From Pyrobaculum aerophilum str. IM2 (GTDB lineage Archaea; Thermoproteota; Thermoprotei; Thermoproteales; Thermoproteaceae): a stretch of 32,000 nt of DNA. A model generated the notes under the pieces. The model did not search any database and was not told the origin of the DNA. It was given only the letters and a program-made list of their open reading frames with translations. This document shows, piece by piece, positions 8,239 through 28,392 of this stretch. Where the stretch lies: positions 1,230,001-1,262,000 of the forward strand of contig NC_003364.1 of assembly GCF_000007225.1 (NCBI RefSeq), given 5' to 3'. The stretch's first letter is position 1. Each line of letters begins with the position of its first letter. A program made the position numbers and the translations under genes.

Positions 8239-8269
8239 TTTTAACCCTTCGCACCTATTATCACGAGTG

Positions 8270-8308
8270 CCGCCGGAGAGCCGCGCGCCGCGGCCCCATG
8301 AGCGGCGG
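8270..8308. other. GC-rich nested stem-loop (candidate structured RNA or terminator-associated hairpin)
   Basis: CCGCCG (8270-8275) can pair with CGGCGG (8303-8308). This encloses the hairpin GCCGCG-CGC-CGCGGC (8280-8294). A T-rich tract follows. Confidence 0.25.
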
Positions 8309-8378
8309 TTCCCCGGCCATATTTCTCTTTAAACAACAATACCATAACAAGGTACATTAGTTTATAATACAATGTAAA

Positions 8379-15392: not shown

Positions 15393-17042
15393 ATGAGTCA
15401 GGCGGTATTGACCCAAATAGGCGGCGTGCCCGTGTTGGTGCTTAAGGAGGGCACGCAGAGGGCTTTTGGAAAAGAGGCGCTGAGGCTTAATATTATGATC
15501 GCCAGGGCAATAGCAGAGGTAATGAGGACGACGCTGGGGCCCAAGGGCATGGATAAGATGTTAATAGACTCTCTTGGCGACATAACTATTACCAACGACG
15601 GCGCAACTATTTTAGACGAAATGGACGTCCAGCACCCAATTGCGAAATTACTAGTTGAGATCTCTAAGTCTCAAGAGGAGGAGGCCGGCGATGGCACCAC
15701 TACTGCCGTCGTCCTCGCCGGCGCGTTATTAGAGGAGGCTGAGAAGCTTCTTGAGAAGAACATCCACCCCACGGTCATTGTAAGCGGGTTTAAGAAGGCT
15801 CTCGACGTGGCTGCTGAGCACTTGCGCAAAGTGGCCATACCAGTGAATCGTACTGACGTCGATACCTTGAGGAAAATAGCCATGACGTCTATGGGCGGGA
15901 AGATCTCTGAGACTGTTAAAGAGTATTTCGCGGACCTCGCTGTAAAGGCCGTGTTGCAAGTGGCTGAGGAGAGAAACGGAAAGTGGTACGTAGATTTAGA
16001 CAATATACAAATAGTGAAAAAGCACGGAGGCTCTCTGTTAGACACGCAACTGGTATACGGTATTGTCGTGGACAAGGAGGTTGTCCACGCTGCGATGCCA
16101 AAGCGCGTGGTAAACGCCAAAATCGCCTTGCTTGACGCGCCGCTGGAGGTGGAGAAGCCAGAGATAGACGCCGAGATTAGAATAAATGACCCGACTCAAA
16201 TGAGGGCGTTCCTCGAGGAGGAGGAGAGGATACTAAGGGGCTATGTAGATAAACTTAAGTCGCTGGGAGTTACTGTCCTCTTCACCACTAAGGGCATTGA
16301 CGACATTGCGCAGTACTATTTAGCTAAGGCCGGCATTCTCGCCGTGAGGAGAGTCAAGCGCAGTGATATAGAGAAATTAGTGAGGGCCACAGGAGCAAGG
16401 CTAGTGACAAGTATTGAGGACTTGACAGAGGCCGACTTGGGCTTCGCCGGCCTTGTGGAGGAGAGGCGTGTTGGCGATGAGAAAATGGTATTTGTGGAGC
16501 AGTGCAAGAACCCGAAGGCCGTGTCAATTTTAGTAAGAGGCGGCTTTGAGAGGCTCGTTGACGAGGCCGAGCGTAATTTAGACGACGCGCTATCGGTAGT
16601 CTCAGATGTTGTAGAGGATCCCTACATACTGCCCGCCGGAGGAGCCGCCGAGATAGAGGCCGCAAAGGCCGTCAGAGCCTTTGCTCCAAAAGTCGGGGGC
16701 AGGGAGCAATACGCAGTGGAGGCCTTTGCCAGGGCGTTAGAGGTTATTCCAAAGGCGCTGGCCGAGAACGCCGGGCTTGACCCAATTGACATACTCACAG
16801 AGCTGACGCACAAGCACGAGCAAACAGACGGCTGGAAGTACGGCCTCGACGTCTATCAAGGCAAAGTGGTGGACATGGTGTCGCTGGGCTTAGTAGAGCC
16901 TTTGACGGTGAAGATTAACGCCTTAAAAGTGGCCGTTGAGGCCGCGTCAATGATCCTTCGCATTGACGAAATTATAGCTGCCTCTAAGTTAGAAAAAGAG
17001 AAGGAAGAAAAGAAAGAAGAGAAGAAAGAAGAGTTTGACTAA
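15393..17042 (+). CDS. ths: Thermosome subunit (group II chaperonin)
   Basis: LGPKGMDKM, ITNDGATIL, GDGTTTAVVLAG and VLPAGGAAEIE motifs, with a K/E-rich C-terminal tail. Confidence 0.95.
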   Translation: MSQAVLTQIGGVPVLVLKEGTQRAFGKEALRLNIMIARAIAEVMRTTLGPKGMDKMLIDSLGDITITNDGATILDEMDVQHPIAKLLVEISKSQEEEAGDGTTTAVVLAGALLEEAEKLLEKNIHPTVIVSGFKKALDVAAEHLRKVAIPVNRTDVDTLRKIAMTSMGGKISETVKEYFADLAVKAVLQVAEERNGKWYVDLDNIQIVKKHGGSLLDTQLVYGIVVDKEVVHAAMPKRVVNAKIALLDAPLEVEKPEIDAEIRINDPTQMRAFLEEEERILRGYVDKLKSLGVTVLFTTKGIDDIAQYYLAKAGILAVRRVKRSDIEKLVRATGARLVTSIEDLTEADLGFAGLVEERRVGDEKMVFVEQCKNPKAVSILVRGGFERLVDEAERNLDDALSVVSDVVEDPYILPAGGAAEIEAAKAVRAFAPKVGGREQYAVEAFARALEVIPKALAENAGLDPIDILTELTHKHEQTDGWKYGLDVYQGKVVDMVSLGLVEPLTVKINALKVAVEAASMILRIDEIIAASKLEKEKEEKKEEKKEEFD

Positions 17043-17590
17043 ACCCAACTTCTTTTTCTAAAGAGTAATATTACTATTAACAGAATTACCCCAATTGCTA
17101 TAATATCTTTATTTAGAACTAAATGGGGAATTGATATTGTTAGTGCAGTTATTGTTATCACAAGCCGATTTTTGGCCCTCAGTGCTGTAATGCTCTGGCT
17201 GAACAGATACGTCGACGCCCTTATCTTCTTTTTCTCAGCGGCAATTATGGGATCTTCAATTGTGGGCTCTGCGTAGAGTTTAGTGAGGTAGTCTATTGGG
17301 TTGTAATATTCCTTAAGCGTGGCGAAGTACCTCCTGGCCATAGCCTCCCTCTCCACATTGGCCATAAACTTCCTGATTTTCTCCTCAGCGTTTCTCAAGA
17401 CTCTTCTTGAGAGGAGCACCCCTAGTGCTAACAAGGCCAGTGACAAATATTTAAACGCGGGTTCGAAGAAAAGCGCAAGGCCGCTCATCATTACACTCGA
17501 CATAGAAGTCGCCGAGAGGATTACCACTAGCCTGTGATACGCCCTCTCCTGTATTAAGGCTACTCTCTGGGCAACGTATTCAGCTAGCAT
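17039..17590 (-). CDS. Small polytopic membrane protein, last gene of the ATPase operon (possible single-domain platform-like protein)
   Basis: 183 aa with two N-terminal and two C-terminal hydrophobic helices flanking a charged helical region. Its start overlaps the ATPase stop by 11 nt. The gene is AT-rich. Confidence 0.6.
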   Translation of the reverse strand: MLAEYVAQRVALIQERAYHRLVVILSATSMSSVMMSGLALFFEPAFKYLSLALLALGVLLSRRVLRNAEEKIRKFMANVEREAMARRYFATLKEYYNPIDYLTKLYAEPTIEDPIIAAEKKKIRASTYLFSQSITALRAKNRLVITITALTISIPHLVLNKDIIAIGVILLIVILLFRKRSWV

Positions 17591-18611
17591 AAAGCTCGAC
17601 CACTCTCCGTTCTATTCCCTCGTCGTATCGTTTCGCCAACTGAATTATGGCCAGGTTTTCACGGCTTATTCCCCGCCTCTCTAATCTCTTTAATGCGTCT
17701 TTTACGCTTGTAGCGTGCATAGTCGCCAGAGTCTGTAGCCCTATCTCGACGGCTGTTTTAAAAGCGTTGAAATGCTCTTCGTACTGCAACTCGCCTATGA
17801 TTATTATGTCTATATTGCGGTTAAGCGAGGCGTAGACCTCTCTAAGTTTATTGACGTTTCGTATCTTTATCTGATTCTTATCAGGATCGTCGTCAAACTC
17901 GTCGGCCTCGTCTATATAGACTCTTTGTAGCTGGCCTGGGATTAAGTCGTCAATTACTGACAGTAGAGTCGTCTTTCCAGAGCCCGGAGGCCCCGTTATT
18001 ACAATGTGGCGTCCCTCTTTAACCCAAGCGTATACGGTTTTAAGTTGCTCCTCTGTTATAAATCCCGATTTTAACATGTCAGCAACGGCTATTTTCCCTC
18101 TGTGTATTCTTATGTATGCCTGCGGCACAGGGACTACGGGCGGGAGATCTAGCGATATTCTTAGGCGTAAATCCCCCAGTTTTAAGCCGTAGCGTAGGGA
18201 CGGGTTAGACGTCGTAAGCTCAACCCCCTTTAAATACGCAATTTTCAGCAGGCTCTTCACGGTCTTGAGCTCGGCTGTAACGTCGGCCTTTTCCTTGCCG
18301 CTTTTACGCGTAATATAAATAGGCCTGCCCGGGATTACAACAATATCCTCTACTTCTCTGTCCTCTAAAAAAGGGCTGAGCTCCTCAAGGCCCACTGTTG
18401 CCAGAACTCCTCTAATTGCCATTTTTTCATTTATTCTCCTCAACACGCCGTATCTAAAGTCTAGAGTTTCGTCAATGGATTTTTTAAACACTCTGGACAA
18501 AAGCTTTATTACTAAGGGGAGTTCCTCTTTGGCGAAGTCGCAAATCCCCTTCTCAACGCACGAAGACTTGCACTCAGCGCATTCAAGTAGTCTCTTTAAT
18601 ATTGGGTACAT
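17580..18611 (-). CDS. PilT/VirB11/FlaI-class secretion-type ATPase (minimal, 343 aa)
   Basis: VEDIVVIPGRPIYI N-domain signature, Walker A GPPGSGKTT, Walker B-like IDIIIIGELQ and His-box TMHAT. An N-terminal Cys cluster CAECKSSCVEKGIC is also present. Confidence 0.85.
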   Translation of the reverse strand: MYPILKRLLECAECKSSCVEKGICDFAKEELPLVIKLLSRVFKKSIDETLDFRYGVLRRINEKMAIRGVLATVGLEELSPFLEDREVEDIVVIPGRPIYITRKSGKEKADVTAELKTVKSLLKIAYLKGVELTTSNPSLRYGLKLGDLRLRISLDLPPVVPVPQAYIRIHRGKIAVADMLKSGFITEEQLKTVYAWVKEGRHIVITGPPGSGKTTLLSVIDDLIPGQLQRVYIDEADEFDDDPDKNQIKIRNVNKLREVYASLNRNIDIIIIGELQYEEHFNAFKTAVEIGLQTLATMHATSVKDALKRLERRGISRENLAIIQLAKRYDEGIERRVVELYAS

Positions 18612-19062
18612 ATTTTCTGAGCCGTGACGCCGTGTCTCTAATAGAGAATTTGCTTACTCCGAGAATTTTTGCTATGACCTGTTTGTGAATATATATTCCA
18701 AGCCGCTCTGCTGCTAAATACGCTACCGCAGCCGCGATTACCCTAGGCGATTTACCTTGATATATTCTCTTGTCAAGACGCTGGAAAATTTGAAGCGCCA
18801 CCACCGTAACTTCAGGCACGCCTAAGGCCTCAGCGACTTTGCCAGTATACATTTTTACCATCTCGCTGTATTTCTTCTTAATACTCTTTTTGTTCTCTTG
18901 TTCAAGAGCCAGCATTATTAATTTATGCCTTACTGGTACTGGAAGCACTTGCCTAGGCCTTGGGGGCACGACCTCTGGGCCTAACACAGTCCCGCAGTCT
19001 CGGCATACATACTCGCCATCTGCTAATGTAATATTCATTGACTGACAATATGGACATTTCAT
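18583..19062 (-). CDS. Truncated TFB/TFIIB-like protein (Zn ribbon plus a single cyclin-like repeat)
   Basis: MKCPYCQS...YVCRDCGTVL Zn ribbon. One cyclin/HTH-like repeat follows (KSPRVIAAAVAYLAAERLGIYIHKQVIAKILGVSKFSIRD). At 159 aa there is no second repeat. The stop overlaps the ATPase start by 29 nt. Confidence 0.7.
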   Translation of the reverse strand: MKCPYCQSMNITLADGEYVCRDCGTVLGPEVVPPRPRQVLPVPVRHKLIMLALEQENKKSIKKKYSEMVKMYTGKVAEALGVPEVTVVALQIFQRLDKRIYQGKSPRVIAAAVAYLAAERLGIYIHKQVIAKILGVSKFSIRDTASRLRKYVPNIKETT

Positions 19063-19081
19063 GAGCCTGGGAAACTTCGAT

Positions 19082-19094
19082 TTTTAAAAATAAT
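19082..19094 (-). promoter_or_regulatory. TATA-like box for the TFB-like/ATPase operon
   Basis: An A/T box (plus strand TTTTAAAAATAAT) centred about 26 nt upstream of the minus-strand ATG at 19062. Confidence 0.4.
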
Positions 19095-19160
19095 AACTTA
19101 TATTTTTTTCTATAAAGAGAGAGTTCTCTAAAACTTTTAAAGCACTAATGCCTCCTCAAA

Positions 19161-19170
19161 ATTTTTAAAG
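19161..19170 (+). promoter_or_regulatory. TATA-like box for the Rpo8-like gene
   Basis: ATTTTTAAAG centred about 24 nt upstream of the ATG at 19190. Confidence 0.4.
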
Positions 19171-19189
19171 AGCCTCGATTTGAGCCCAC

Positions 19190-19504
19190 ATGGAGTTTTC
19201 CCTTGCCGTAGTGGATGTCACTAACGATATGCCTAACGTTATAAAGCTCAAGGGCGACGTAGAGGCGACAATAGAGTTGCCGCTAGAAAAGCTAGGAGTA
19301 GTATTTTCTGTCGGCGACCGCTTAAAATTAGTTCTACAAAAGGAGAAAGACCAAGACTTAAATAAGTACAAAGTATACGCATGGGGCATTGTCTATTACG
19401 TCGGTAATGGCATGACTAGAATCTCTATTGGGGGTTTACAACTTGACATAATGAAGGAGTTGCCGTTAAAAGCCGGGGAAAAGATTTACGTGGGGATTTT
19501 ATAG
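19190..19504 (+). CDS. rpo8: Probable RNA polymerase subunit Rpo8 (RpoG, Rpb8-like)
   Basis: The C-terminal pattern YKVYAWGIVYYVG...RISIGGLQLDIM...GEKIYVGIL resembles the Rpb8 signature Y-x-M-x-G-K-V-Y...S-F-G-G-L-L-M...Y-L-L. The size fits the crenarchaeal homologs. Motif-level call only. Confidence 0.5.
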   Translation: MEFSLAVVDVTNDMPNVIKLKGDVEATIELPLEKLGVVFSVGDRLKLVLQKEKDQDLNKYKVYAWGIVYYVGNGMTRISIGGLQLDIMKELPLKAGEKIYVGIL

Positions 19505-19539: not shown

Positions 19540-19974
19540 ATGGCGTCTACACTGGCCGAGGCCAGCAAGCGGTTTGTGGCCGAGCTGAATAACCTCCTCG
19601 GAAGAGAAGTCCAAGTGGTGTTGTCCAACGGCGAGGTATATAAGGGCGTATTACACGCGGTAGACAACCAATTGAACATTGTGCTGGCAAACGCAAGTAA
19701 CAAGGCCGGGGAGAAGTTTAACAGAGTATTCATTATGTATAGGTATATTGTCCATATAGACAGTACTGAGAGGCGAATAGACATGAGGGAATTCGCCAAG
19801 CAAGCCGAAAAGATATTCCCTGGTATGGTGAAATACATAGAGGAGACAAACGTAGTGTTAATCGGCGACAAAGTAAGGGTGAGTGAAATAGGCGTCGAAG
19901 GGGTGGGCCCCGTCGCGGAGAGGGCGAAGAGACTTTTCGAAGAGTTCCTGAAAAGATACTCCCTGGAACAGTAA
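19540..19974 (+). CDS. Sm-like archaeal protein with a C-terminal extension (SmAP3-type)
   Basis: Sm1/Sm2 pattern (LLGREVQVVLSNGEVYKGVLHAVDNQLNIVLANA ... RVFIMYRYIVHI) plus an extra domain of about 70 aa, as described for Pyrobaculum SmAP3. Confidence 0.8.
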   Translation: MASTLAEASKRFVAELNNLLGREVQVVLSNGEVYKGVLHAVDNQLNIVLANASNKAGEKFNRVFIMYRYIVHIDSTERRIDMREFAKQAEKIFPGMVKYIEETNVVLIGDKVRVSEIGVEGVGPVAERAKRLFEEFLKRYSLEQ

Positions 19975-19989
19975 AAATACATTGTACTG

Positions 19990-20214
19990 CGGTAGCTTGT
20001 CGCTTTTTCTCCCCGCGCCTTTACGCCGCTAATAACCCGCCTCAACGTCGTAAGGCAGTACGTAACGTATATGTGTCCCCTCAGCTCCTGCCTCAGCCGC
20101 GTTAACGCCGTTATAAGCCTCCTGTATAAGACAGCATTAGGAGGCTCCAAACCGCCTCTGTAACTCAAGGGCCTCCGATAGGGCGATTTTTGCGCACCTC
20201 GTCTTAACTGTCAT
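19990..20214 (-). pseudogene. Degenerate third unit (N-domain remnant) of the tandem array
   Basis: It starts with the same ATGACAGTTAAG junction and reads MTVKTRCAKIALSEALELQRRFGAS*. After frame changes it reads ...AYNGVNAAEAG..IRYVLPYD.., collinear at DNA level with the N-terminus of ORF 20204-21043. Confidence 0.6.
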
Positions 20215-21043
20215 CGCCCCTATGGGCCACCTTAATCCAGTCGTCCACAAGCTTTATCTCCGGCCTTAGGTACACGCCGTGGGGGGTGTCAAATACGTAA
20301 AACGCGGCCATTTTTTCGCCCACTTTACACACAGCCCTTTTCTCCGTCACGAAACACGACATGGACTTGCCACGCCATTCCCCCTCCCACCAAAAGGCCC
20401 CTCTTAGGGCCCTTTCCATTGGCGCTATTCCGAATTCCCTCTTCGCGGCGCTTCTCATTTGACACAGCGCGTGGTATTCCTCAAGCCTCTTGGCCACTTT
20501 CAGCGGGTGTGCTGGCGTCTCGCCGAAACAGCGGAAATACCACTCCGTTAAGGCGTTCAGCACTTCCTCTCTAATTCTCTGCCTCCGTAATTGCTCCTCC
20601 CACTCCCTCTGCTCTTTAACCCGCCTCAACACCTCGCTGATACAGCCCCTAAGGCTTTCCCTATAGCAAAGACTCCCCTCTATCCTCACACCGTCTACAA
20701 CGGCGTAATAATACGTTTTGTATCGCGTTTTTTCTATCATAATTTCTATCTTGTGATTTTCAGCCAGCTCGTATAGGGCCTCCGCCAGCGTAGGCGATAT
20801 GCCATAGCCCTCCCACCTCTTCTTTGGCTTGTATTCAGCCATATAGCGTTTAGCGATTGTGTCGTAGGGCAATACATAACGAAAGCGTATACCCTTCCTC
20901 CCGCCTTCTGCAATAACGGCGTCAACGCCGTAGAAGGCCCCTTGCGTGAAACACCCCCAAGAGACGCCGAATTTGCGCGGTAAGGAAAAGGCCTCTGGTA
21001 GCGCCACTTTTACACACGCCGCCTTAACCGCCTTAACTGTCAT
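20204..21043 (-). CDS. Uncharacterised two-domain protein, the full unit of the WWEGEW repeat family
   Basis: 279 aa. The N-domain is MTVKAVKAACVKVALPEAF...IRFRYVLPYD... The C-domain is ...LNALTEWYFRCFGE...AFWWEGEWRGKSMSCFVTEKRAVCKVGEKMAAFYVFDTPHGVYLRPEIKLVDDWIKVAHRGDDS. The C-domain has paralogs at 21033-21410, 9626-10054 and 31052-31400. Confidence 0.75.
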   Translation of the reverse strand: MTVKAVKAACVKVALPEAFSLPRKFGVSWGCFTQGAFYGVDAVIAEGGRKGIRFRYVLPYDTIAKRYMAEYKPKKRWEGYGISPTLAEALYELAENHKIEIMIEKTRYKTYYYAVVDGVRIEGSLCYRESLRGCISEVLRRVKEQREWEEQLRRQRIREEVLNALTEWYFRCFGETPAHPLKVAKRLEEYHALCQMRSAAKREFGIAPMERALRGAFWWEGEWRGKSMSCFVTEKRAVCKVGEKMAAFYVFDTPHGVYLRPEIKLVDDWIKVAHRGDDS

Positions 21044-21410
21044 CGCCCCTATACGCCACTTTAATCCAGTCGTCTATTAACTTGATTTCAGGCCTTAGGT
21101 ACACGCCGTGGGGCGTGTCAAATACATAAAACGTTGCCATCTTATCGCCTACTTTACACACAGCCTTTTTCTCCGTCACGAAACACGACATGGGCTTTCC
21201 CCTCCATTCCCCTTCCCACCAAAAGGCCTTCCTCAGGGCGTATTCGCTGATTAGCGGTTCGGCGTATTTCTCCCCGTACTCAGCAATTGCGGTCTTTGCC
21301 ATTTCGCACATGCCGTAATACAGTTCAATCCGCCTTACTAATTTGCCCTCCTCGCCCGGCATGATGGGCCACTTAAAACATCTGCGGTACCAGTCCTTTA
21401 ACGCCGCCAT
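21033..21410 (-). CDS. Uncharacterised protein, C-domain-only member of the WWEGEW repeat family
   Basis: 125 aa, closely similar to the C-terminal half of ORF 20204-21043. Its stop overlaps the next gene's start (GGCGATGACAGTTAAG). A further 34 homologous codons upstream (to 21512) lack any start codon. Confidence 0.7.
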   Translation of the reverse strand: MAALKDWYRRCFKWPIMPGEEGKLVRRIELYYGMCEMAKTAIAEYGEKYAEPLISEYALRKAFWWEGEWRGKPMSCFVTEKKAVCKVGDKMATFYVFDTPHGVYLRPEIKLIDDWIKVAYRGDDS

Positions 21411-21567
21411 TACCTGACTCTTAAGCTCAAGTCTCCTCTGCTCCTCCTCCTTCTTCCTCCACTCCAGTACGCGGGACTCCTCGTTCTTTATGTAATCTAT
21501 GGCGCGTATGCGTTAAAATATTGCCTTAAATCTCGCTTAAGTTGTTTTTAAAAAGGCGCGGAAATAC

Positions 21568-22596
21568 GTGGAAGAGGCGCCGGGATGCATCGCGGCGGTA
21601 GAGGAGGCAGTCAAGCCGGCAGTTGTAGCCGCCGCCGGCCTGGCCGGATACGCGGCGCTACACGACGGGCTGTACTCAACGGCTGTTGTGTCAGCGACGG
21701 CCGCGGCGGTAGTACTGGCGAGGGAGGGGGCCTTTGAGAGGGCAGTGGAGTACGTAAGAAGGGCCGCCGAGGCGGCGTATGAAGCCGCGAGGGAGGTATT
21801 CGAAAAGGCGAGAATAACGTTGCAGAGGCTTTACGAGCTGTTTGTAGAGGCGGTGGCGAGAGTCCTTGACTACGTAAGAGCGCATTGGTTCATAATGGCC
21901 GCCGCGGCGGCCGGGCTGATGGCGTGGGTAGTGGCGCAACAACTGGACTACACGCTTTGGCAGAACCACATAGCGCTTAACGCCGGGGCGATAGCGGGAC
22001 TGGCAAAGGCGGCTGGCGTTGGCGATAAGTGGAAGGAAGTAGGGAATGCGGTATTGACAAAAACAGCAAGCGAGAAAGAGATTGTAGAGCGCGCCGCCCA
22101 GCTAGGCCTTGACAAAGGCGTTGTGGAGAAGGCGGTAAGCGCCTTCTCAACGCTGAGACACGCGATGGATGAGAAGCAAATAGAAAATGCAGTGTTAGAG
22201 TTAAGGCGCTTGACGAGTTACGTGCAGGCGATGAAAGCCGCCAACTACAAAAAGGCCCTTGAGGAGGCCTCTAAGGCGTGGTATGAGCAAAGAGATCCCG
22301 CGGCGCTTTGGGCTCTGGCAGTACTTGGCGCTAGGGAGACCGGCAAGAGCGTAAAGGTCTTTGAAGATGACGATGACAGAATAGCATATCTAATAGCCTC
22401 CTTCACGCTATTAAACCACTTGAGGGAGTTTGTAGAGCTGAAGAACAAGTCCTACAAGGCGCTTGAAAGGCTGGAAGGAGCTGTGAAAAGCGGCAGATTT
22501 GCCCTTAGCGACGTATGGGGTGACCTCAACGTGTTGGTAGAAGCCGCGGAAAGGGCGAAGGGAGGTTACCAACGAGCTGGACAGAATTGCATATAG
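21568..22596 (+). CDS. Uncharacterised Ala-rich membrane-anchored protein, probably the N-terminal part of a frameshifted large gene (paREP2-like, from memory)
   Basis: GTG start with a GTTTTTAAAAAGG box about 18 nt upstream. Hydrophobic A/V/G-rich segments are followed by helical repeats. The 3' end overlaps the open upstream extension of the next ORF's frame. Confidence 0.6.
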   Translation: MEEAPGCIAAVEEAVKPAVVAAAGLAGYAALHDGLYSTAVVSATAAAVVLAREGAFERAVEYVRRAAEAAYEAAREVFEKARITLQRLYELFVEAVARVLDYVRAHWFIMAAAAAGLMAWVVAQQLDYTLWQNHIALNAGAIAGLAKAAGVGDKWKEVGNAVLTKTASEKEIVERAAQLGLDKGVVEKAVSAFSTLRHAMDEKQIENAVLELRRLTSYVQAMKAANYKKALEEASKAWYEQRDPAALWALAVLGARETGKSVKVFEDDDDRIAYLIASFTLLNHLREFVELKNKSYKALERLEGAVKSGRFALSDVWGDLNVLVEAAERAKGGYQRAGQNCI

Positions 22597-22639
22597 GCTG
22601 GAGGGAGCTGGTTACAGCGGAATTGCCGAAAGGCTGAGA

Positions 22640-25615
22640 GTGGCTACGGAGAACGTAATAAGGCTTGCGGAGGCTACGCGAGACGATCTTCCCAAGATAG
22701 ACGCCACTAGAGGAGAGAGGACAGTGACCGCTTTGCTATCGCTTGTAACTGGCGGCCTATTCGGCGTCACTGTGGAGAGGGCATTGGCGGAAAGAGGCAA
22801 ATGGACAGTAGGCGCTCTTGGCATTGCGTCAGCAGTTAGGAGTACACCCTCAAACTTCTACAACGCGTTTAGCTCAGTCAGCGGCGATGAGAAGCCTTCA
22901 GAGGCCAAAAAGCTGACCTTCCGCATTGCCACTTTGCTGGCAGATCCCGCAATGAGAGAAATACTGGCCGGCAGACAGGGCGTGGAAGTACGCGTAGAGC
23001 AAAAAACAGAAAACGGCAAAAAGTACATTTATATCACGTTTGTAGACAAGGACGGCCACGAGCTCCTCAAAGCCCCATGGGATGCCGACAGGGGGTTAAT
23101 GCCGCTTTGGGCTGAGGGAGAGGTAGTAGAGCTGTTTAAAGAAGTTGGCAAATTGGCTGTGGCTGTCTCCTCCGGCTCTAAACCGCTGGAAGAGCTGAAC
23201 GAGGAGGAATGGAAAAAAGTGGTAGAAACAGTGAGGAGGGTGAAAAAGGCAATTGAATGGACCGTCAAGGCCGTTGCAATCGGCGCACTGCCCACAGACG
23301 CTGTCCTATTACCTGGGTCTGAGTACGTCCGCGGTACCTCCTCCTACCTCTCGCAGACATTTACCTATTGGGCGCTAGCTAAGGACAGAATTGGGCTCGT
23401 AAGAGTATACCCCTCCGAAGAGGGGCTAAAGCCGATGTGGCGCGTTGAGGGCAAGTACACTGAGGCGGTGCGCGAGGTGCTGAGTGTAAGCCGCGCCGTG
23501 TTTGAAAATCTATTGACACCTAACAAACAGTCGGAAGGCGGCGTTGATCTGAAGGTGGCTCTAACTGATGTTAAAATGAATGATGAATTAAAGAAGGCCT
23601 TGGAGACGGCGGCCGGCGAGTTCTGGGAGCGCGTTAATGAGCTGTTAGCACTGTGGAAACAGCTAGAAGAGGAGGCAAAGGAGAAAAAGGACGAAGAGAG
23701 GAAAAAGGTGGTAATGGAGGTAGACAAGCTGGGCAAATACCTCCGCGTCCTCCTCCCGCTGGCATATGCCGTAGAGGCGCGCAAGATGGGTGAACTGTCT
23801 AGAGAGGAGGCGGCCCTTGCGGTGATTTTCGCTGTGTTGTACGATGGGACTGTGTTTAGAGACGAAATTCTGCTTTTCATCGGCGGCCCTGAACACGTGG
23901 AAAGCCCGATTATGACCCGCGACCACTTCACCGCTTTCTGGCTGTGGGCTCTGAAGGAGCTTGGCCTTAAGCCAAGCTCAGTGTATAGGGGCAGAGGCGC
24001 GCACCATATTGCCTTCAAAGGCGCCGAGCTGAACGGCTTACTGGAGGCTGTAACGCCGGCGCTACCCGCGTTGCACGAGCTTAGGGATGCCCTGACAGAA
24101 TTCGCCGACGCGTTTAAAGTCGTTACCCGCGAGGCGGTTAAAAGGAAATTCGGCATTGACTGGGGTTACGACGTGAGAAACGAAATGTTTTTCAAAAAGC
24201 TAGAGGAAGTTGTTACAATGGCAGAGGACTACGTCTACAGAAACGTCACAGTGGAGAGGGATCAGCTGGACACAAGCGGACAGTTGCCAAAGACTGTCAT
24301 CCGCTTTAAGCTTGGCGGGGAGGAGGTGGCGTACATAACCGTATACTGGACTGGCAGTAAGCTACTAGCCCAATTCGACGGCTCTCGAGAAAAAGCCGAA
24401 CAGTTAGCCTCTATCATTACGGCTTTGGGCGGCAAGGCGGAGGTCAAACCAAAGAATGCCAAATGGACTGTTCACCTCCACACCGACGGCATAATTGCCA
24501 TTCGCCATGACAGCTGGTTAAATGCTGTGAAGGGCTTTGTTGACGAACTTTACAGTAAGGGGCTGATCAGCGAGGATAGATACGAACAGTTGGTGAGGGA
24601 CATAGCTACAGGCCCCAACACCGTCAACTATGCCGGGGTGGAGTTCTCGGTTTATCACAAGACGGAAGGTAAATACGATTTTTTAGAAATAAGGTATCAC
24701 CCAGGCAACGAGGCCTCTAAAAATGCCGTTGTGAACGCCCTAAAGGCAAGAGGGCTGAAAGAGGGTGTACACTTCACTGTGAAAGAGTACGGCGACTACG
24801 AAATTCACGTGGCTGTTGAATCGTATACAAAAGCTTTGGAAGCCTTGGCACGTAGCTGGCTGAGAAAGGGAGAGTACTACGCCATTGATGACAGAAAGCG
24901 TGTAATCAGCGTCAAGGCGGAGCACAAAGACGCAGTTGTAAATACCCTAAAAACCGCTGGGCTGGAGGAGGATAGACACTTTACGGTGAAGTGGGACGGA
25001 TACTACGTAATTCGTATTACATATGAAGGCCTCCGCGAAATCCAGCGTATGGCGCTAAACGGCGACGTGGAGGCTGAGCGCTTTATAAGGGAGCTTGAGG
25101 ATGTGCTGAGGCGCCGCCACGGCCAAAACGCAGTGAAAAGGCTGATTGAAGTGTTGACGCCGGCGAGGGAGGAGGGGACGATAGATTTACCGCTAGAAGT
25201 GCGCGACGAAAGGGGCAACGTGGTAGCCCGCGTTGTGGACTTGAGGTATGAATTCGTAATGGGCGATCAACCCGTTGGCCAGTGCGCCGGGGAGGACTGC
25301 CGCCTGCGCATAATAGTGGAGTACGAGACAGAGGGGGAAAGGAGACAGCTAAAGATAGTATGTTACTGGGTTAAGAAACAGAAAGAGAAAGGCAACGCAA
25401 CAGTCACATACTACTATGAAGCGGCATGGTCGAGAGTCAAAAACGATGTGGAAGCCGCCGTGTTGAAGGCGCTGACGGGAAAGGCGAAGAGGGGCAGAGT
25501 GCAACTCTTTTCCAGCGACTTAGACACCCTGTACCGCTTTAAGGCCCTAAAGGATGCCGTAGATAAGTGGAGAGGGGGAAAGCCACAGAGTGTTGTTCAA
25601 AGACGAGGTATATAA
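22640..25615 (+). CDS. Large uncharacterised modular protein (paREP2-like, from memory)
   Basis: 991-aa ORF with a coiled-coil-like K/E stretch and internal repeated modules, plus a paralogous fragment at 9214-9573. Its frame is open for 33 further codons upstream (from 22541) without a start codon. Confidence 0.75.
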   Translation: MATENVIRLAEATRDDLPKIDATRGERTVTALLSLVTGGLFGVTVERALAERGKWTVGALGIASAVRSTPSNFYNAFSSVSGDEKPSEAKKLTFRIATLLADPAMREILAGRQGVEVRVEQKTENGKKYIYITFVDKDGHELLKAPWDADRGLMPLWAEGEVVELFKEVGKLAVAVSSGSKPLEELNEEEWKKVVETVRRVKKAIEWTVKAVAIGALPTDAVLLPGSEYVRGTSSYLSQTFTYWALAKDRIGLVRVYPSEEGLKPMWRVEGKYTEAVREVLSVSRAVFENLLTPNKQSEGGVDLKVALTDVKMNDELKKALETAAGEFWERVNELLALWKQLEEEAKEKKDEERKKVVMEVDKLGKYLRVLLPLAYAVEARKMGELSREEAALAVIFAVLYDGTVFRDEILLFIGGPEHVESPIMTRDHFTAFWLWALKELGLKPSSVYRGRGAHHIAFKGAELNGLLEAVTPALPALHELRDALTEFADAFKVVTREAVKRKFGIDWGYDVRNEMFFKKLEEVVTMAEDYVYRNVTVERDQLDTSGQLPKTVIRFKLGGEEVAYITVYWTGSKLLAQFDGSREKAEQLASIITALGGKAEVKPKNAKWTVHLHTDGIIAIRHDSWLNAVKGFVDELYSKGLISEDRYEQLVRDIATGPNTVNYAGVEFSVYHKTEGKYDFLEIRYHPGNEASKNAVVNALKARGLKEGVHFTVKEYGDYEIHVAVESYTKALEALARSWLRKGEYYAIDDRKRVISVKAEHKDAVVNTLKTAGLEEDRHFTVKWDGYYVIRITYEGLREIQRMALNGDVEAERFIRELEDVLRRRHGQNAVKRLIEVLTPAREEGTIDLPLEVRDERGNVVARVVDLRYEFVMGDQPVGQCAGEDCRLRIIVEYETEGERRQLKIVCYWVKKQKEKGNATVTYYYEAAWSRVKNDVEAAVLKALTGKAKRGRVQLFSSDLDTLYRFKALKDAVDKWRGGKPQSVVQRRGI
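24719..25057 (+). repeat. Internal tandem duplication of a module of about 45 aa, spaced 69 aa apart, inside the 991-aa ORF
   Basis: KNAVVNALKARGLKEGVHFTVKEYGDYEIHVAVESYTKALEALA (from 24719) versus KDAVVNTLKTAGLEEDRHFTVKWDGYYVIRITYEGLREIQRMAL (from 24926). Confidence 0.6.
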
Positions 25616-25647: not shown

Positions 25648-28392
25648 CTAGTCCCAAAACGCCCTAGTAGCGGCGAATTGTTTTTCTGCGTCTATAATCG
25701 CCGCCCACAAGTCTTCGCCCTGAATTACTTTATTGAGAATCCGCACTGCCGTCTTGGGGCCGACGCCGTGTGCGAGCTGTACTAATACGCCAAGTCTGCC
25801 GTGTTCTAACACGAGAGATGCGCTGAGTTGCAAATACTCCAATATTTTCCTCTCCTCTGGATCAAGTTTTTGTTTTATTTTAAACTTTTTAATTACTTGC
25901 CTGGCCTTTTCTATATTAAAACCTTTAACTACTGCTAGAGCCTTTACGCCGCAGTTTTGGCACGAAATGTCTTCAGGCAACATAGAGGCCTTTGATATAT
26001 ATGACCACCCGCAGTTGAGACAGAGGAGAGTGGCGTATTTGTTCATAATTCTCTTTCTGGCCAAATCGGCTAAAGACTCCTTTGAGAGGCCCTTAAAGGA
26101 GAAGTCCAGTCGCAAAGCCTCTTCAAGAATGGGCTTTTCCAGCGCAGTGGGTTTTGCAAGCCTTCGAAATATAAGCGGCATTTCGCCACTTGCCACTTTT
26201 TCGAGTAGCGTGAAGAGGGCCTTTACGTCAAGTTTCTCAACGAAAATCTCGTTGAGAGTTTCTAACCCCGGGAGGTCATCAGAGTAGAGATCTGGCAATT
26301 TAGAGGGCACCTCCTCTGCGTCTTTTGACACGAGACCTACCCTCCTAGCCACTTGTAAGAATCTGTATCTATACATCTTAGAGCTTTTAACGGCGTTTTT
26401 AAGAGTGGTGTATACAAAGGGCTGGGGCTTTTTAAAAACTTCCTCAAGGGCTTGTACCGGGACGAAGTCTCTAAAAATTAAGAGGACTCTGTACGCATCT
26501 GATCTATACCCCACGGGCCCTACGTAGCCAGAAAGGGCGTGGGATAAGTAGGCCCCAAGCGCCTCGTTGCCCTTATGGCCAAGACAGCTGTGCACCACGG
26601 CGTATTTATTCCCAACAATGTGTATATGTAATTTATCTGGCCGCGGTATTAAATCCGGCGTAATCCCCTCCATATCAACTGGCCACTCCTCCGCGCCGGC
26701 TTTTAACAACGCCTCTGCTCGCCTTTTACAAACCTCTTGAGCTATTTCGTAGGGGACTGGTATCTGCTCCCCTAGCCACGCCGGCAGGGCGCCCGTCAGC
26801 TCAAAATCGGGATAGAGGTATACCACATCGCCTTCCCGCCTAATAAAAGTCCACACGCATCCCGACAGAACTATTTTCGTCCCCGGCTCTATGGAGTATA
26901 CAAATTCTCTGTCGAGCTCTCCCACTGCCTTCCCTGTGGTGTCGTCCACAGCTCTATAGCTCTTCTCGTCTGGAATTGTAGAGACGTTCTCAAAATAATA
27001 GCGAATACTCCCCTTCCTTGGCCTCAGCCCCTTGAGAAGCCCGTGTCTTTCGGCGAAGTCAATTACCAGGCGGAGATCGTCTTCTGTCAAATTCCGATAG
27101 GGGTGCGCCCTCTTCACCACGCGCGCTACATAGTGAATATCCGCATCCCTCCCGTCAAGCCGTCCCTCTAGGGCAATGCCGACAACTTGGTGCAAGAGGA
27201 CGTCTAAGGCGTTTTCGTGATATTCCACGTCTGTTTCAAGAACCCCCTTCACTGCCCGCTCGGCTATAACTTCAGACTCTAAATAGTCCTCTAAATCGGC
27301 GGCTATTACAATCCCTCTCGAAGTAAGGCCCAGCTTGTGCCCGCTCCTCCCGACTCTTTGAACAAGCTTTGCCACTTGTCTGGGACTGCCGTATTGCACC
27401 ACTAAGTCAATTTCGCCTATATCAATGCCCAGCTCAAGACTTGACGTAGCCACTACGGCCTTTAATTCCCCCCTCTTCAGCCGCTCTTCTACTGCGATTC
27501 TGTGATCCCTTGAAAGAGAAGAGTGGTGCACCTCCACAACGTCTCCCAAAATCTGTTTTAACCTCGAGGCGAGGAACTCCGCGCCGTCTCTAGTATTTGT
27601 AAACACCAAGACAGAGCCCTTGGAAGATTTTACGTACTCACCAACTCTTTTAATCCGCGCCACAGCCTCAGGAGTTGCGTCAAATTTCTCTGCGTCGATA
27701 TAATCCTCGTCTGAAGGCGTTGGCAACACCACTTCTATATCTAACTTCTTCTCCCCCGACACGTCCACTACCTCGACCCTCCTCCCCACGCCTCCCAAAA
27801 ACTCCGCCACAAGCCCCGGCGCCCCCACTGTGGCCGAGAGTCCAATACGTTGAAACTCCCCCGCTAGCTCAACCAGCCTCTCCAAGCCAACTGTCAGTTG
27901 TACCCCGCGCTTGCTGTTTATAAGCTCATGCACTTCATCGACTATTACAAAACGCACCTTTCTCAAACTCGGCCTAAGCCCTCTGTGAAGTAACAATATT
28001 TGTAAAGTCTCGGGCGTAGTTATTAACACATCAGGCGGCTTGCGCGCCAGCGATCTCCTCTCGCCCTCTGGAGTATCGCCGTGTCTCACCGCAATGCTAA
28101 CCCCTACTCTTTCAGCCAAGGCGAATAACCTGCGCAACAAGTCCCTGTTTAAGCTCCTAAGAGGCGTAATGTACAGACACTTAACGCCCCCCTCTCCTCG
28201 GCTTTCTAAAATCCGCGACAGAACTGGAAAAAACGCGGCCTCAGTCTTGCCAAAGCCCGTCGGCGCTATTAATAACACGTGCAAACCAGCCAAAATTTTG
28301 GGAATAGCCCCTATCTGCGCGGGAGTGGGCTCTGCATATCCCAGCTCTTTAATAGCCTTCTGCAACTCAGGGTGCAGAAGGTTGAAAACCAC
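25648..28392 (-). CDS. lhr: Lhr-type large ATP-dependent helicase (DEAD/DEAH superfamily 2)
   Basis: Motif I APTGFGKTEAA, motif II DEVH, motif III SAT, motif VI QRVGRSGH. A long C-terminal extension carries CLNCGW...CQNCG. GTG start. Confidence 0.9.
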   Translation of the reverse strand: MVFNLLHPELQKAIKELGYAEPTPAQIGAIPKILAGLHVLLIAPTGFGKTEAAFFPVLSRILESRGEGGVKCLYITPLRSLNRDLLRRLFALAERVGVSIAVRHGDTPEGERRSLARKPPDVLITTPETLQILLLHRGLRPSLRKVRFVIVDEVHELINSKRGVQLTVGLERLVELAGEFQRIGLSATVGAPGLVAEFLGGVGRRVEVVDVSGEKKLDIEVVLPTPSDEDYIDAEKFDATPEAVARIKRVGEYVKSSKGSVLVFTNTRDGAEFLASRLKQILGDVVEVHHSSLSRDHRIAVEERLKRGELKAVVATSSLELGIDIGEIDLVVQYGSPRQVAKLVQRVGRSGHKLGLTSRGIVIAADLEDYLESEVIAERAVKGVLETDVEYHENALDVLLHQVVGIALEGRLDGRDADIHYVARVVKRAHPYRNLTEDDLRLVIDFAERHGLLKGLRPRKGSIRYYFENVSTIPDEKSYRAVDDTTGKAVGELDREFVYSIEPGTKIVLSGCVWTFIRREGDVVYLYPDFELTGALPAWLGEQIPVPYEIAQEVCKRRAEALLKAGAEEWPVDMEGITPDLIPRPDKLHIHIVGNKYAVVHSCLGHKGNEALGAYLSHALSGYVGPVGYRSDAYRVLLIFRDFVPVQALEEVFKKPQPFVYTTLKNAVKSSKMYRYRFLQVARRVGLVSKDAEEVPSKLPDLYSDDLPGLETLNEIFVEKLDVKALFTLLEKVASGEMPLIFRRLAKPTALEKPILEEALRLDFSFKGLSKESLADLARKRIMNKYATLLCLNCGWSYISKASMLPEDISCQNCGVKALAVVKGFNIEKARQVIKKFKIKQKLDPEERKILEYLQLSASLVLEHGRLGVLVQLAHGVGPKTAVRILNKVIQGEDLWAAIIDAEKQFAATRAFWD

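Follow-up and report, generated by a model that had tools for sequence, protein, structure and literature searches.

The Pyrobaculum aerophilum copy of archaeal subsystem 4D: a conserved operon of a one-cyclin TFB paralog, a minimal FlaI/VirB11-class ATPase and a small membrane protein

Three overlapping minus-strand genes in the 32,000-nucleotide stretch of DNA analyzed here (the window) are well supported as the P. aerophilum IM2 copy of the type-IV-filament-derived module known as "subclade" or "subsystem" 4D. It is also well supported that they form a core operon which Thermoproteaceae have inherited vertically and which occupies a fixed place between the thermosome gene and rpoG. The operon consists of a TFB/TFIIB paralog gene (18583..19062, 159 aa, AAL63960, arCOG05559 type), a T2SSE/FlaI/VirB11-class ATPase gene (17580..18611, 343 aa, AAL63959, arCOG05558 type) and a gene for a membrane protein with about four transmembrane (TM) segments (17039..17590, 183 aa, AAL63958, arCOG05557 type); all three proteins exactly matched these P. 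aerophilum records. We reproduced the coordinates and overlaps given in an earlier note on this DNA, with 29 nt shared by the TFB-like and ATPase ORFs (18583-18611) and 11 nt by the ATPase and membrane-protein ORFs (17580-17590). As had been claimed, the membrane gene and the thermosome gene have 4 nt in common, because their respective stop codons, TAG (17041-17039) and TAA (17040-17042), overlap. The N-terminus of the ATPase is conserved among orthologues, which bears on the choice of its start codon (alignment A1), and overlapping gene junctions were seen again in 12 orthologous loci. A check of neighborhood conservation bore out the overlapping operon, with the trio found together in 14/14 Thermoproteaceae loci examined. 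The TFB gene had been described as "fused into" the module; it is in fact a separate, overlapping gene, with no fusion.

The earlier note could not assign the arrangement to any described system, but the trio corresponds to the type IV pilus (T4P) "subclade 4D" of Makarova, Koonin and Albers 2016, defined by arCOG05558/05557/05559 with an adjacent RPB8 gene (PMC4858521), and restated in a 2026 preprint as "subsystem 4D", a remnant with a repurposed function (bioRxiv 10.64898/2026.04.22.720090). As here, the 4D ATPase is short, carries an N-terminal Cys-rich mini-domain and lacks the C-terminal domain; a 4-5 TM protein of no known family adjoins it; a one-cyclin TFIIB homologue lies in the same operon; the locus contains no pilin or secreted protein; and RPB8 is adjacent, in the opposite orientation in Pyrobaculum. 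Because no feature differs from the published description, we assign the trio to 4D, and the operon arrangement is already known. We add to this description that the Vulcanisaeta orthologues of all three proteins are long forms at the same chromosomal position, that truncation of the TFB removed precisely the first cyclin repeat, that the membrane protein fails the TadC tests by both sequence and fold, that low GC3 is lineage-wide, and that the order rpo8-TFB-ATPase occurs in Asgard MAGs too. This adjacency is conserved in Thermoproteales and recurs in Thor- and Hermod-type Asgard MAGs, where rpo8, a divergent TFB paralog and a related ATPase are followed by a Flp-like prepilin.

In the TFB paralog, a Zn ribbon (residues ~1-30) is joined by a flexible linker (31-64) to a single cyclin repeat (65-149). 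Pfam searches returned Zn_Ribbon_TF (6.8e-8, residues 1-35) and a single TFIIB repeat (2.2e-7, residues 75-145), and NCBIfam families matched as well. By phmmer against PDB sequences, residues 68-147 aligned with residues 107-189 of Pyrococcus woesei TFBc and residues 228-293 of human TFIIB; the sole cyclin repeat corresponds to the C-terminal, BRE-binding helix-turn-helix (HTH) repeat of TFB. The cyclin domain was confidently modelled by AF2 (model pLDDT 79.7), and the best Foldseek matches were TFIIB, TFB and Brf structures (1ais_B, rmsd 2.1 Å over 90 columns). Conservation of the Zn-ribbon cysteines is 90% or more in family alignments A4 and A5, and A5, which includes the Vulcanisaeta and Asgard forms, shows no variation at R142 of the HTH recognition helix. 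With a single cyclin repeat the protein cannot be a complete general factor, a point of the earlier note on which Pfam, NCBIfam, PDB phmmer and the AF2 model agree.

The ATPase matched Pfam T2SSE (4.8e-18; 65.4 bits against a cut-off of 24.9), and its translation contains the motifs that had been read from it: an N-terminal four-Cys cluster (C10-x2-C13-x3-C17-x5-C23), Walker A (GPPGSGKTT) and a His box (TMHA, in LATMHAT), together with an Asp box (YIDEADE) and Walker B (IGELQ). Residues K213, D234, E235, D237, E238, E274 and H299 are invariant in alignment A1; with every catalytic motif invariant, the protein is predicted to be catalytically active. In a profile search against the PDB, the best match was FlaI (4ii7, 2.4e-21), with query residues 64-341 aligned to residues 114-408 of 513. 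Because the alignment covers only this part of FlaI, the FlaI-type N- and C-terminal extensions are missing, and both A1 and the profile search support a minimal FlaI/VirB11-class ATPase. Thermoproteaceae ATPases of this family are about 340 aa long, those of Vulcanisaeta 515-550 aa.

Hydrophobic segments and the AF2 model give the membrane protein four long helices, with about four TM segments and a ~70-aa cytoplasmic helical region between TM2 and TM3. The model, built on 8 sequences, is all-helical and of moderate confidence (pLDDT 75.6). Every Thermoproteaceae locus has a positional orthologue (phmmer 1e-56 to 3e-4; alignment A2), and the family has 9 representatives among 1.84 billion proteins. 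Pfam and further sequence tests gave no T2SSF signal, and Foldseek found no fold match in its PDB library. The protein had been called too small for a canonical FlaJ/TadC platform; these analyses uphold the four-helix description and indicate that it is also too different. Pyrobaculum and Thermoproteus share ~20% identity in this protein, against ~48% in the ATPase and ~43% in the TFB paralog, so the membrane protein evolves much faster than its partners. It is lineage-specific, with no relative detected outside its own family, is not a canonical platform, and is presumed to be a membrane anchor or platform for the ATPase.

The reported lack of a nearby prepilin also stood. Prepilin-like ORFs were found in 31/55 control loci but in none of the 24 Thermoproteales loci, and the window yielded none either; in Asgard and Nitrososphaerales loci, a prepilin-like ORF of ~70 aa with a G|xxxxE motif follows the ATPase. 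Archaeal pilins can act in trans (PMC4858521), so the absence of a cis pilin is no proof that pilus function has been lost.

Upstream of the operon lies rpoG, which encodes the Rpo8/RPB8 RNA polymerase subunit (19190..19504, plus strand; alignment A7). Against Pfam RNA_pol_RpbG, the window protein scored 2e-4 and its Vulcanisaeta counterpart 8e-6. In Pyrobaculum the gene and the operon are divergently oriented; in Thermoproteus and Vulcanisaeta the gene lies directly upstream and points the same way as the operon. RPB8 adjacency was recorded by Makarova et al. 2016 (PMC4858521). The putative divergent promoter region between operon and rpoG (19063..19189, GC ~0.39) was delimited by reading the sequence. 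It contains a TATA-like T5A5 at 19081-19090 (-19 to -28 from the TFB-like ATG), a position that fits a leaderless transcript, and a second TATA-like box, for rpoG, on the opposite strand. Thirteen orthologous upstream regions also have a TATA-like box at this distance, and we regard these boxes as candidate promoters. Pyrobaculum species share a conserved C/T-rich element, AACTCTCTC (19117..19125, minus strand), at -55 to -63 relative to the TFB-like start codon, which is retained as ACTC[CT]C in Thermoproteus despite the other orientation of rpoG there. The rest of the window shows no enrichment of this element (13 matches versus 7.2±2.7 expected).

The low GC of the block had been taken as a sign of possible foreign origin. 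Formal analysis found the dip to be real but modest (trio GC 0.44-0.46 and GC3 0.41-0.50; most other window genes GC ~0.51 and GC3 0.55-0.69). Low GC3 recurs in every orthologous locus and is common to housekeeping rpoG, which argues against a foreign origin. We consider it highly improbable that the block is a recently acquired remnant of a virus, plasmid or integrative and conjugative element (ICE) placed between housekeeping genes, even though thaumarchaeal ICEs pair TFIIB with FlaI/PilT ATPases and PaREP2 repeat genes lie 1 kb away. The best NCBIfam matches of the ATPase are conjugative TrbB/VirB11 models, but their scores fall far under the cut-offs (62 versus 304 bits). A search of viruses, phages and plasmids yielded no close relative (matches ≤29% identity), neither an integrase nor a tRNA nor repeats turned up in the block, and no tRNA was found in the window. 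Synteny of the trio and its flanks (thermosome, rpoG and an Sm-like gene) extends over 14 species of Pyrobaculum and Thermoproteus, and both are kept in ~9 Vulcanisaeta loci; together with the lineage-wide GC3, this shared synteny essentially refutes recent acquisition. The trio was possibly acquired anciently, before the Thermoproteales radiation. There is similarly little to recommend the reading that the TFB-like ORF is what remains of a full-length tfb gene undergoing decay, in an operon heading for loss. It would explain why this gene has the lowest GC3 in the block, why the protein is ~115 aa shorter than its Vulcanisaeta orthologue, and why the ORFs are split in some Vulcanisaeta draft genomes (L021, L022 and L024). 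However, alignment A5 against the ~276-aa Vulcanisaeta orthologue revealed a clean deletion of exactly one structural domain, the first cyclin repeat, and the remaining repeat is predicted to fold well. The short form is intact in 28 homologues from two genera, with constant architecture and 43-78% identity, the ATPase and membrane partner are conserved alongside it, and the split ORFs are limited to draft assemblies and may be sequencing errors.

Comparison among loci supports the module as a probable reduced derivative of a pilus-type ATPase/membrane module carrying its own TFB paralog. Vulcanisaeta retains the larger forms, and in related Asgard and Nitrososphaerales ATPase loci a Flp-like prepilin still adjoins the ATPase. 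Thermoproteaceae would have lost the pilin, cut the ATPase to N2 plus the catalytic core and removed from the TFB paralog exactly the TBP-contacting cyclin repeat, with the membrane partner becoming a fast-evolving 4-TM protein. The best explanation, to which we give about an even chance and which is the likeliest, is that a pilus machine has been reduced to a remnant and coupled to a dedicated TFB paralog able to bind RNAP and DNA. One leaderless transcript, with coupled translation, would yield all three proteins, and the ATPase, as an active hexamer, would be held at the membrane by docking on the 4-TM protein. In the TFB paralog, the Zn ribbon may still provide binding to the RNA polymerase dock, and the BRE-type HTH, with its invariant key Arg, binding to DNA; the protein would be unable to assemble with TBP as a general TFB does. 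With RNAP and DNA binding kept and TBP assembly lost, it might serve specific promoters as a dedicated modulator, working there as an activator/recruiter or in competition with TFB. Most likely the module would no longer assemble a pilus, and a membrane-associated ATPase activity would be coupled to transcription, as suggested by Makarova et al. 2016 (PMC4858521).

The TFB paralog may instead be just the operon's regulator, since TFIIB homologues occur in many ordinary archaeal T4P loci, where they are the commonest regulators (PMC4858521), and in thaumarchaeal ICEs. It is possible, if rather doubtful, that the ATPase and the 4-TM protein, as a very diverged short TadC, still function as a minimal motor for a type IV filament or for secretion, assembling pilins encoded elsewhere in the genome. 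Makarova et al. explicitly kept this option and proposed that ATPase/TadC modules use pilins in trans (PMC4858521). The ATPase catalytic motifs are intact, and related Asgard and Nitrososphaerales ATPases have a cis Flp-like prepilin and a nearby TFB; as the Asgard rpo8-TFB-ATPase relatives carry a pilin-like gene, the rpo8/TFB linkage is compatible with a real pilus machine. Against such a motor stand the pilin-free Thermoproteales loci, a membrane protein that lacks any T2SSF signal and evolves like a mere anchor, and an ATPase without the terminal regions of FlaI. The locus is also universally conserved and fixed beside rpoG and the thermosome gene, whereas typical T4P loci are variable and HGT-prone (PMC4858521). 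An accessory role in DNA uptake or transfer seems improbable; here, the trio would supply a VirB11-like ATPase to the conjugation-like Ted system of Thermoproteales, with the truncated TFB acting as TFB3 does for Ced/Ups in Sulfolobales. The Ted system has no described VirB11-like ATPase or regulator, and in Nitrososphaerales the ATPase relatives are followed by a HerA/VirB4-like ATPase. This proposal is drawn by analogy, however; none of TedA, TedB and TedC lies in or near any of the loci, and TFB3 is a different truncation from the TFB paralog.

Among known systems, Sulfolobales TFB3 resembles the TFB paralog in being a small crenarchaeal protein with a four-Cys Zn ribbon that cannot be a general factor and that is functionally tied to type-IV-filament-type machinery, activating ups and ced after DNA damage. 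Truncated TFBs fall in three separate classes (Feng et al.), and the two proteins, told apart by description, are truncated differently: in TFB3 the C-terminal HTH is missing and a coiled coil is present; in the TFB paralog the C-terminal cyclin/HTH is kept and the first repeat is missing. Unlike its gene, tfb3 lies outside any ATPase operon. With the Tad/Flp core and FlaI-FlaJ, the trio shares an ATPase of the same superfamily (best PDB matches FlaI, archaeal GspE2 and CpaF), encoded directly upstream of a polytopic membrane protein, like TadA with TadB/C. Related archaeal loci encode two platform-like proteins and a Flp-like prepilin, but the trio locus has no pilin, prepilin peptidase or T2SSF-type platform, and its ATPase lacks the regions matching FlaI residues 1-113 and 409-513. 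VirB11/TrbB proteins are of like size (~320-340 aa) and two-domain architecture; TrbB, TadA-conjugal and VirB11 were the best, though sub-threshold, NCBIfam matches, and 1g6o and 6bge were among the PDB matches. In contrast to those systems, the locus contains no VirB4, VirB6 or VirB2. Finally, bacterial sigma factors and their membrane anti-sigma factors may offer a working analogy, in which a membrane protein encoded alongside an initiation-factor paralog that binds RNAP could gate the availability of that paralog; there is no homology, and here an ATPase would replace the anti-sigma logic.

The three minus-strand ORFs of the trio were recovered as the earlier note gave them, and each translation matched a P. 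aerophilum protein record exactly: the TFB paralog (18583-19062, 159 aa; AAL63960), the ATPase (17580-18611, 343 aa; AAL63959), and the membrane protein (17039-17590, 183 aa; AAL63958). Consecutive genes overlap by 29 nt and 11 nt, and the last gene has 4 nt (CTAA) in common with the convergent thermosome gene. The overlapping junctions are also present in a dozen species, and the start codon of the ATPase is supported because the N-terminus is conserved in orthologues; the three genes are probably co-transcribed and translationally coupled. In the profile searches that the earlier note had proposed, protein 1 matched Zn_Ribbon_TF together with just one TFIIB repeat, protein 2 matched T2SSE, and protein 3 matched no family.

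The trio is almost certainly the vertically inherited T4P subclade 4D (TFF subsystem 4D) of Makarova, Koonin and Albers 2016 (PMC4858521). As described there, 4D has two components and never a pilin. The ATPase of Pyrobaculum and Thermoproteus (arCOG05558) bears a small cysteine-rich domain at its N-terminus and no C-terminal domain. The membrane component, with 4-5 TM segments (arCOG05557 or arCOG13890), “might be” a short, highly diverged TadC, and the operon also contains a TFIIB homologue with one cyclin repeat (arCOG05559). RPB8 belongs to the operon in Thermoproteus, while Pyrobaculum has it on the opposite strand (PMC4858521). We found the same features here: a VirB11/FlaI-family ATPase without the C-terminal domain and with the small Cys-rich N-terminal domain in Pyrobaculum; a second component of approximately four TM segments that resembles no other membrane protein family; a locus free of genes for pilins or secreted proteins; and, in the predicted operon, a TFIIB homologue with a single cyclin repeat, next to RPB8 on the opposite strand. 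The assignment to arCOG05558, arCOG05557, and arCOG05559 was made by match with the published description and organism. The earlier note had considered the arrangement not assignable to any described system; as 4D was already published, that statement is wrong, though the anatomical reading behind it is accurate. Our analysis directly shows the families to which proteins 1 and 2 belong, the operon-like overlaps, the conservation and synteny of the three genes, the lack of a cis-encoded pilin, the exact extent of the TFB truncation, and the intact catalytic motifs of the ATPase. The finding is thus a rediscovery of a published oddity and in itself adds nothing new. Literature searches by arCOG number and keyword returned only the 2016 paper and a 2026 preprint (bioRxiv 10.64898/2026.04.22.720090), with no experimental follow-up on 4D. 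The Thermoproteales are at present not amenable to genetics (PMC9905601).

To the Pfam model T2SSE, the 343-aa ATPase scored 65.4 bits (gathering score 24.9), and it has the Walker A, Asp box, Walker B, and His box of the T2SSE/PilT/FlaI superfamily; the GPPGSGKTT, TMHAT, and CxxCxxxCxxxxxC motifs named in the earlier note can all be read directly in the translation. In our ATPase alignment, which spans Pyrobaculum, Thermoproteus, and Vulcanisaeta, four sets of residues never vary (the Walker A Lys, the acidic residues of the Asp box, the Walker B Glu, and the His of the His box), and the enzyme, judged from its sequence, is presumably active. Profile matches of the family ranked FlaI first (4ii7, 2.4e-21), followed by Archaeoglobus GspE2 and CpaF and then by VirB11 and PilT. 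Residues 64-341 align to residues 114-408 of the 513 in FlaI, so the enzyme has neither the N-terminal nor the C-terminal extension of FlaI. The top NCBIfam matches were TrbB, TadA-conjugal, and VirB11, all far under their cut-offs; the equivalog thresholds were not reached for TrbB (62.1 vs 304.6) or VirB11 (50.7 vs 250), and the T4SS gene context of conjugative VirB11/TrbB enzymes (VirB4, VirB6, VirB2) is not present among the neighbors. The N-terminal cysteines C10, C13, C17, and C23 are conserved in Pyrobaculum members and the Vulcanisaeta ATPase has a CxxC and further Cys in a long insert, while the Thermoproteus enzymes have no such cluster, which therefore cannot be essential to the system. 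A T2SSE ATPase from an uncultured archaeon (P0050, 594 aa) carries fused 4Fe-4S ferredoxin-type domains, possibly a parallel to the Cys-rich N-termini of 4D ATPases. We found no known defense system in the trio (PADLOC gave only generic P-loop matches) and no virus-family membership (PHROGs matches were weak and uninformative).

In TFIIB/TFB, the Zn ribbon binds the RNAP dock, the first cyclin repeat provides the main TBP contacts, and the BRE is recognized by the HTH of the second repeat, which has a key Arg in its recognition helix. The TFB paralog retains the four-Cys ribbon (Pfam Zn_Ribbon_TF, 32.4 bits vs a cut-off of 29), and the cysteines are conserved in the family alignment. An AF2 model (pLDDT 79.7) has a three-stranded Zn ribbon at residues 1-30 and a five-helix cyclin repeat at residues 65-149; the poorly defined 34-aa linker between ribbon and core has one low-confidence helix (residues 45-58, pLDDT ~53) and, in the family alignment, no recognizable conserved B-reader motif beyond GPExxPP. 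Foldseek on this model gave TFIIB, TFB, and Brf structures. In place of the two-cyclin core there is a single repeat equivalent to the C-terminal one: residues 68-147 match the second repeat in solved structures (P. woesei TFBc 107-189, human TFIIB 228-293), and in NCBIfam the protein aligns to positions 214-299 of the 312-position TFB model (PRK00423), at 32.4 bits vs a cut-off of 384. Aligned to the Vulcanisaeta orthologues, the short form is without a contiguous stretch of ~115 residues corresponding to the first cyclin repeat, and the two forms have the motifs GEYVCxxCG, KxxxQGKxP, and VSxF[ST][IL]RD in common. R142, which we take to be the key BRE-reading Arg of the recognition helix, is invariant in an alignment that includes Vulcanisaeta and Asgard forms. 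Because the ribbon and the HTH with its invariant Arg are retained, the protein should still bind RNAP and DNA; because the first repeat is missing, a canonical TBP-TFB-DNA complex is not possible, and we infer binding to RNAP and DNA but not to TBP. Our search yielded 28 homologues. Among the 18 family members aligned with the window protein, 17 have an intact protein with 43-78% identity to it, and the most distant one (P0148) has 32% identity. The gene is intact and conserved in its family and is therefore not a pseudogene, which argues against the possibility, raised in the earlier note, that the ORF is a decayed fragment.

The membrane protein diverges fast. Positional orthologues are recognizable within the Thermoproteaceae, and between Pyrobaculum and Thermoproteus it is ~20% identical, where the ATPase reaches ~48% and the TFB paralog ~43%. 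An exhaustive phmmer/HMMER search over 1.84 billion representatives yielded only nine relatives, all of ~180 aa, and similarity to the 5-TM counterpart in Vulcanisaeta is marginal (hhalign 32%, N-terminal 78 residues only). The AF2 model (pLDDT 75.6) has helices at residues 2-41, 46-77, 79-92, 98-107, 114-160, and 163-181, which are predicted to form four TM segments and a cytoplasmic helical stalk; the ATPase would probably dock on this 4-TM protein as a hexamer. We looked for signs of a T2SSF platform (TadC/FlaJ/PilC/GspF) and found none by sequence profile or fold: relaxed Pfam scans gave no T2SSF match in 14 Thermoproteaceae and 9 Vulcanisaeta members, even at E ≤ 10; a profile search of the PDB found nothing; Foldseek of the model against the PDB gave only generic helical bundles (E > 0.1); and hhalign against platform-like proteins of related loci gave a probability below 1%. 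We therefore rejected the identification as a diverged TadC, for which there is no T2SSF sequence signal, no PDB fold match, and no relative beyond the lineage.

Conservation was assessed by scanning species-representative genomes with the ATPase alignment, which produced 79 loci (L001-L079) that we then characterized with ORF maps and HMM and phmmer searches. All loci in Pyrobaculum (8) and Thermoproteus (6) have the order TFB-like protein (150-175 aa), ATPase (~340 aa), and membrane protein (180-190 aa) with overlapping junctions, and in these 14 Thermoproteaceae loci the trio is preceded by rpoG, the Rpo8/RPB8 subunit gene, and an Sm-like gene and followed by the convergent thermosome gene. 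The trio, whose neighborhood the earlier note had proposed to check in relatives, is thus conserved with its flanks in both genera. In Vulcanisaeta (~9 loci), the same flanks enclose rpoG, a TFB-like protein of ~276 aa, an ATPase of 515-550 aa, and a 5-TM protein of ~257 aa. The pattern of synteny is one of vertical inheritance of the core locus. In three Vulcanisaeta JCM drafts (L021, L022, L024), the TFB-like and/or ATPase ORFs are in two pieces, which could be frameshift sequencing errors or real decay.

The earlier note had taken the low GC of this block as a sign of a possible foreign origin. The deviation is real, with GC3 of 0.41-0.50 in the trio vs 0.55-0.69 for most neighbors, but the same dip is present in every orthologous locus: across L001-L023, the block of rpoG, TFB-like, ATPase, and membrane protein genes (17039-19504 in the window) lies 10-40 points under its flanking genes in every genome examined. 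The dip includes the housekeeping gene rpoG and is largest in Thermoproteus (0.33-0.41 vs 0.72-0.80 in the flanks of L011). IMG/VR, phages, and PLSDB plasmids contained no close relative, the best being bacterial CpaF/TrbB at ≤29% identity. Synteny, the lineage-wide GC3 dip, and the lack of close relatives on mobile elements together argue against a recent foreign origin, which we rejected; on this point the earlier note was wrong.

In the window, one flank of the trio encodes PolB, a Toprim/DnaG-like protein, methionine aminopeptidase, and the thermosome, and the other has rpoG, a Lsm + Lsm_C protein, and a PaREP2a/PaREP2b cluster specific to P. aerophilum. The Lsm + Lsm_C protein (19540-19974, + strand) is Sm-like, with Lsm_C as an additional domain; in all Thermoproteaceae loci, an ORF of ~142 aa adjoins rpoG. 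The PaREP2 cluster (20204-25615) stands between the Sm-like gene and a gene of ~914 aa (25648-28392) and contains two tandem minus-strand PaREP2a ORFs (20204-21043 and 21033-21410), a 342-aa ORF (21568-22596), and a 991-aa PaREP2b protein (22640-25615). In other Pyrobaculum loci, an ORF of similar size (~900-915 aa) directly adjoins the Sm-like gene, so the cluster may be a species-specific insertion. Elsewhere in the window, 8265-8321 (+ strand) matched Pyrobaculum sRNA 204, an H/ACA-type family (Rfam, 76.8 bits vs a gathering score of 71).

The operon and rpoG are separated by an AT-rich spacer of 127 nt. A T5A5 box lies at -19 to -28 from the ATG of the TFB-like gene, and the opposite strand carries another such box, for rpoG. 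Orthologous upstream regions have a TATA-like box at the same distance, which fits the expectation for leaderless transcripts. Approximately 60 nt upstream of the TFB-like start is a C/T-rich element, AACTCTCTC (19117-19125, minus strand), that is kept in Pyrobaculum and degenerate in Thermoproteus, despite the differing orientation of rpoG. It was not enriched elsewhere in the window, and we discarded it as a regulon motif.

The earlier note had seen no prepilin nearby, and regular-expression and hydrophobicity scans extended this: no prepilin-like ORF was found across the 32-kb window or in any of the 24 Thermoproteales loci, while as a positive control the motif scan found such ORFs in 31 of the 55 non-Thermoproteales loci. 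A single ORF in the window (5212-6060, + strand) has a hydrophobic segment at its N-terminus that resembles that of a pilin, but it encodes a family-3 solute-binding protein, in which a T/P/Q-rich linker comes after the N-terminal TM anchor, and not a pilin.

Related ATPases outside the Thermoproteales are ~30% identical and score ~100-140 bits to the 4D enzymes, vs 40-70 bits for bacterial CpaF and similar proteins. In 12 Thor-, Hermod-, and other Asgard-type MAGs (L025, L026, L028, L029, L037, L044, L046, L047, L058, L059, L070, L075; for example, L029:3771-7405), the order is a 121-aa protein, a TFB of ~347 aa, an ATPase of ~560 aa, and a protein of ~70 aa with one TM. The 121-aa proteins form a family homologous to Thermoproteales RpoG/Rpo8 (hhalign 95%, E 3.5e-8), with weak Pfam RpbG matches in six of nine members, and the Asgard TFBs are divergent paralogs (50-60 bits vs the 384-bit TFB cut-off). 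The Asgard order parallels the rpoG-TFB-ATPase block of the Thermoproteales. Rpo8 in Asgard archaea was already known, and the Thermoproteales and Asgard archaea belong to the two groups reported with Rpo8; neither PMC4858521 nor the 2026 preprint, which describes TFFs as widespread except in Asgard archaea, mentions this gene order. The small Asgard proteins start with ...[KR]GG|PLVEE (Gly at -1, Glu at +5) and continue into a hydrophobic helix, a putative type IV/Flp prepilin signature (G|xxxxE). In the Nitrososphaerales (many of L030-L079; for example, L054:4400-11091), two to three small 1-TM proteins precede the ATPase, two polytopic proteins, a ~70-aa RRGA|QLIEE protein, and a VirB4-like HerA/DUF87 ATPase, often with a TFB paralog 2-3 kb upstream; these loci resemble the TFIIB-bearing thaumarchaeal ICEs and T4P loci, or ICE/T4P hybrids, of Krupovic et al. 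2019. Pfam Flp_Fap weakly matched only one of six small Asgard and Nitrososphaerales proteins, so we did not adopt that annotation, and the pilin call rests on the G|xxxxE motif and the hydrophobic helix.

Makarova, Koonin and Albers 2016 proposed “some transcription-related pathway” for 4D (PMC4858521), and we tentatively favor a repurposed, transcription-linked function, which we consider nearly as probable as not. That 4D is instead a still-functional pilus or secretion motor, served by pilins in trans and with the TFB as its regulator, we regard as rather unlikely; the intact catalytic motifs of the ATPase speak for it, and the lack of a pilin in the Thermoproteales loci speaks against it. 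The probability of an accessory role in Ted, the conjugation-like DNA-transfer system of the Thermoproteales, is small; the Ted paper mentions neither a VirB11-like ATPase nor a TFB, there are no ted genes in the loci, and a link was rejected. Small too is the probability of decay of the operon, for which split ORFs in Vulcanisaeta drafts could speak and the intact TFB family does not, and of foreign origin, for which the GC deviation speaks and its lineage-wide extent does not.

The comparison with relatives fits a Tad/Flp-like module that had its own TFB paralog beside rpo8, was progressively reduced in the Thermoproteales, and was reduced further in the Thermoproteaceae. A more specific form of the transcription-linked reading starts from the linkage of rpo8, TFB, and ATPase that is common to Thermoproteales and Asgard archaea; here, a membrane-anchored ATPase of the Thermoproteaceae would determine how available or how active the TFB paralog is, itself a protein that would bind the RNAP dock and DNA. 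We consider it improbable that the linkage of rpo8, divergent TFB paralog, and T4-filament ATPase is ancient and reflects a real coupling of membrane ATPase and RNAP, with the pilus discarded and the anchored ATPase in control of the TFB paralog in Thermoproteaceae. The Asgard gene order, if upheld, offers a comparative handle on this question. 4D is among the few universally conserved, function-unknown operons of the Thermoproteaceae, and in it a pilus-type ATPase is linked with the paralog of a general transcription factor and with the gene for an RNAP subunit. If functional, the coupling would be a new archaeal way to link the membrane with transcription initiation and an example of a secretion-ATPase machine repurposed after filament loss.

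Among known systems, Sulfolobus TFB3 has a coiled coil and no HTH (PMC6101594); going by that description, the Sulfolobales protein combines a Zn ribbon with a C-terminal coiled coil, whereas the TFB paralog here keeps the C-terminal HTH of TFB. If the coupling is true, 4D would be an archaeal counterpart of sigma/anti-sigma control, made from pilus parts.
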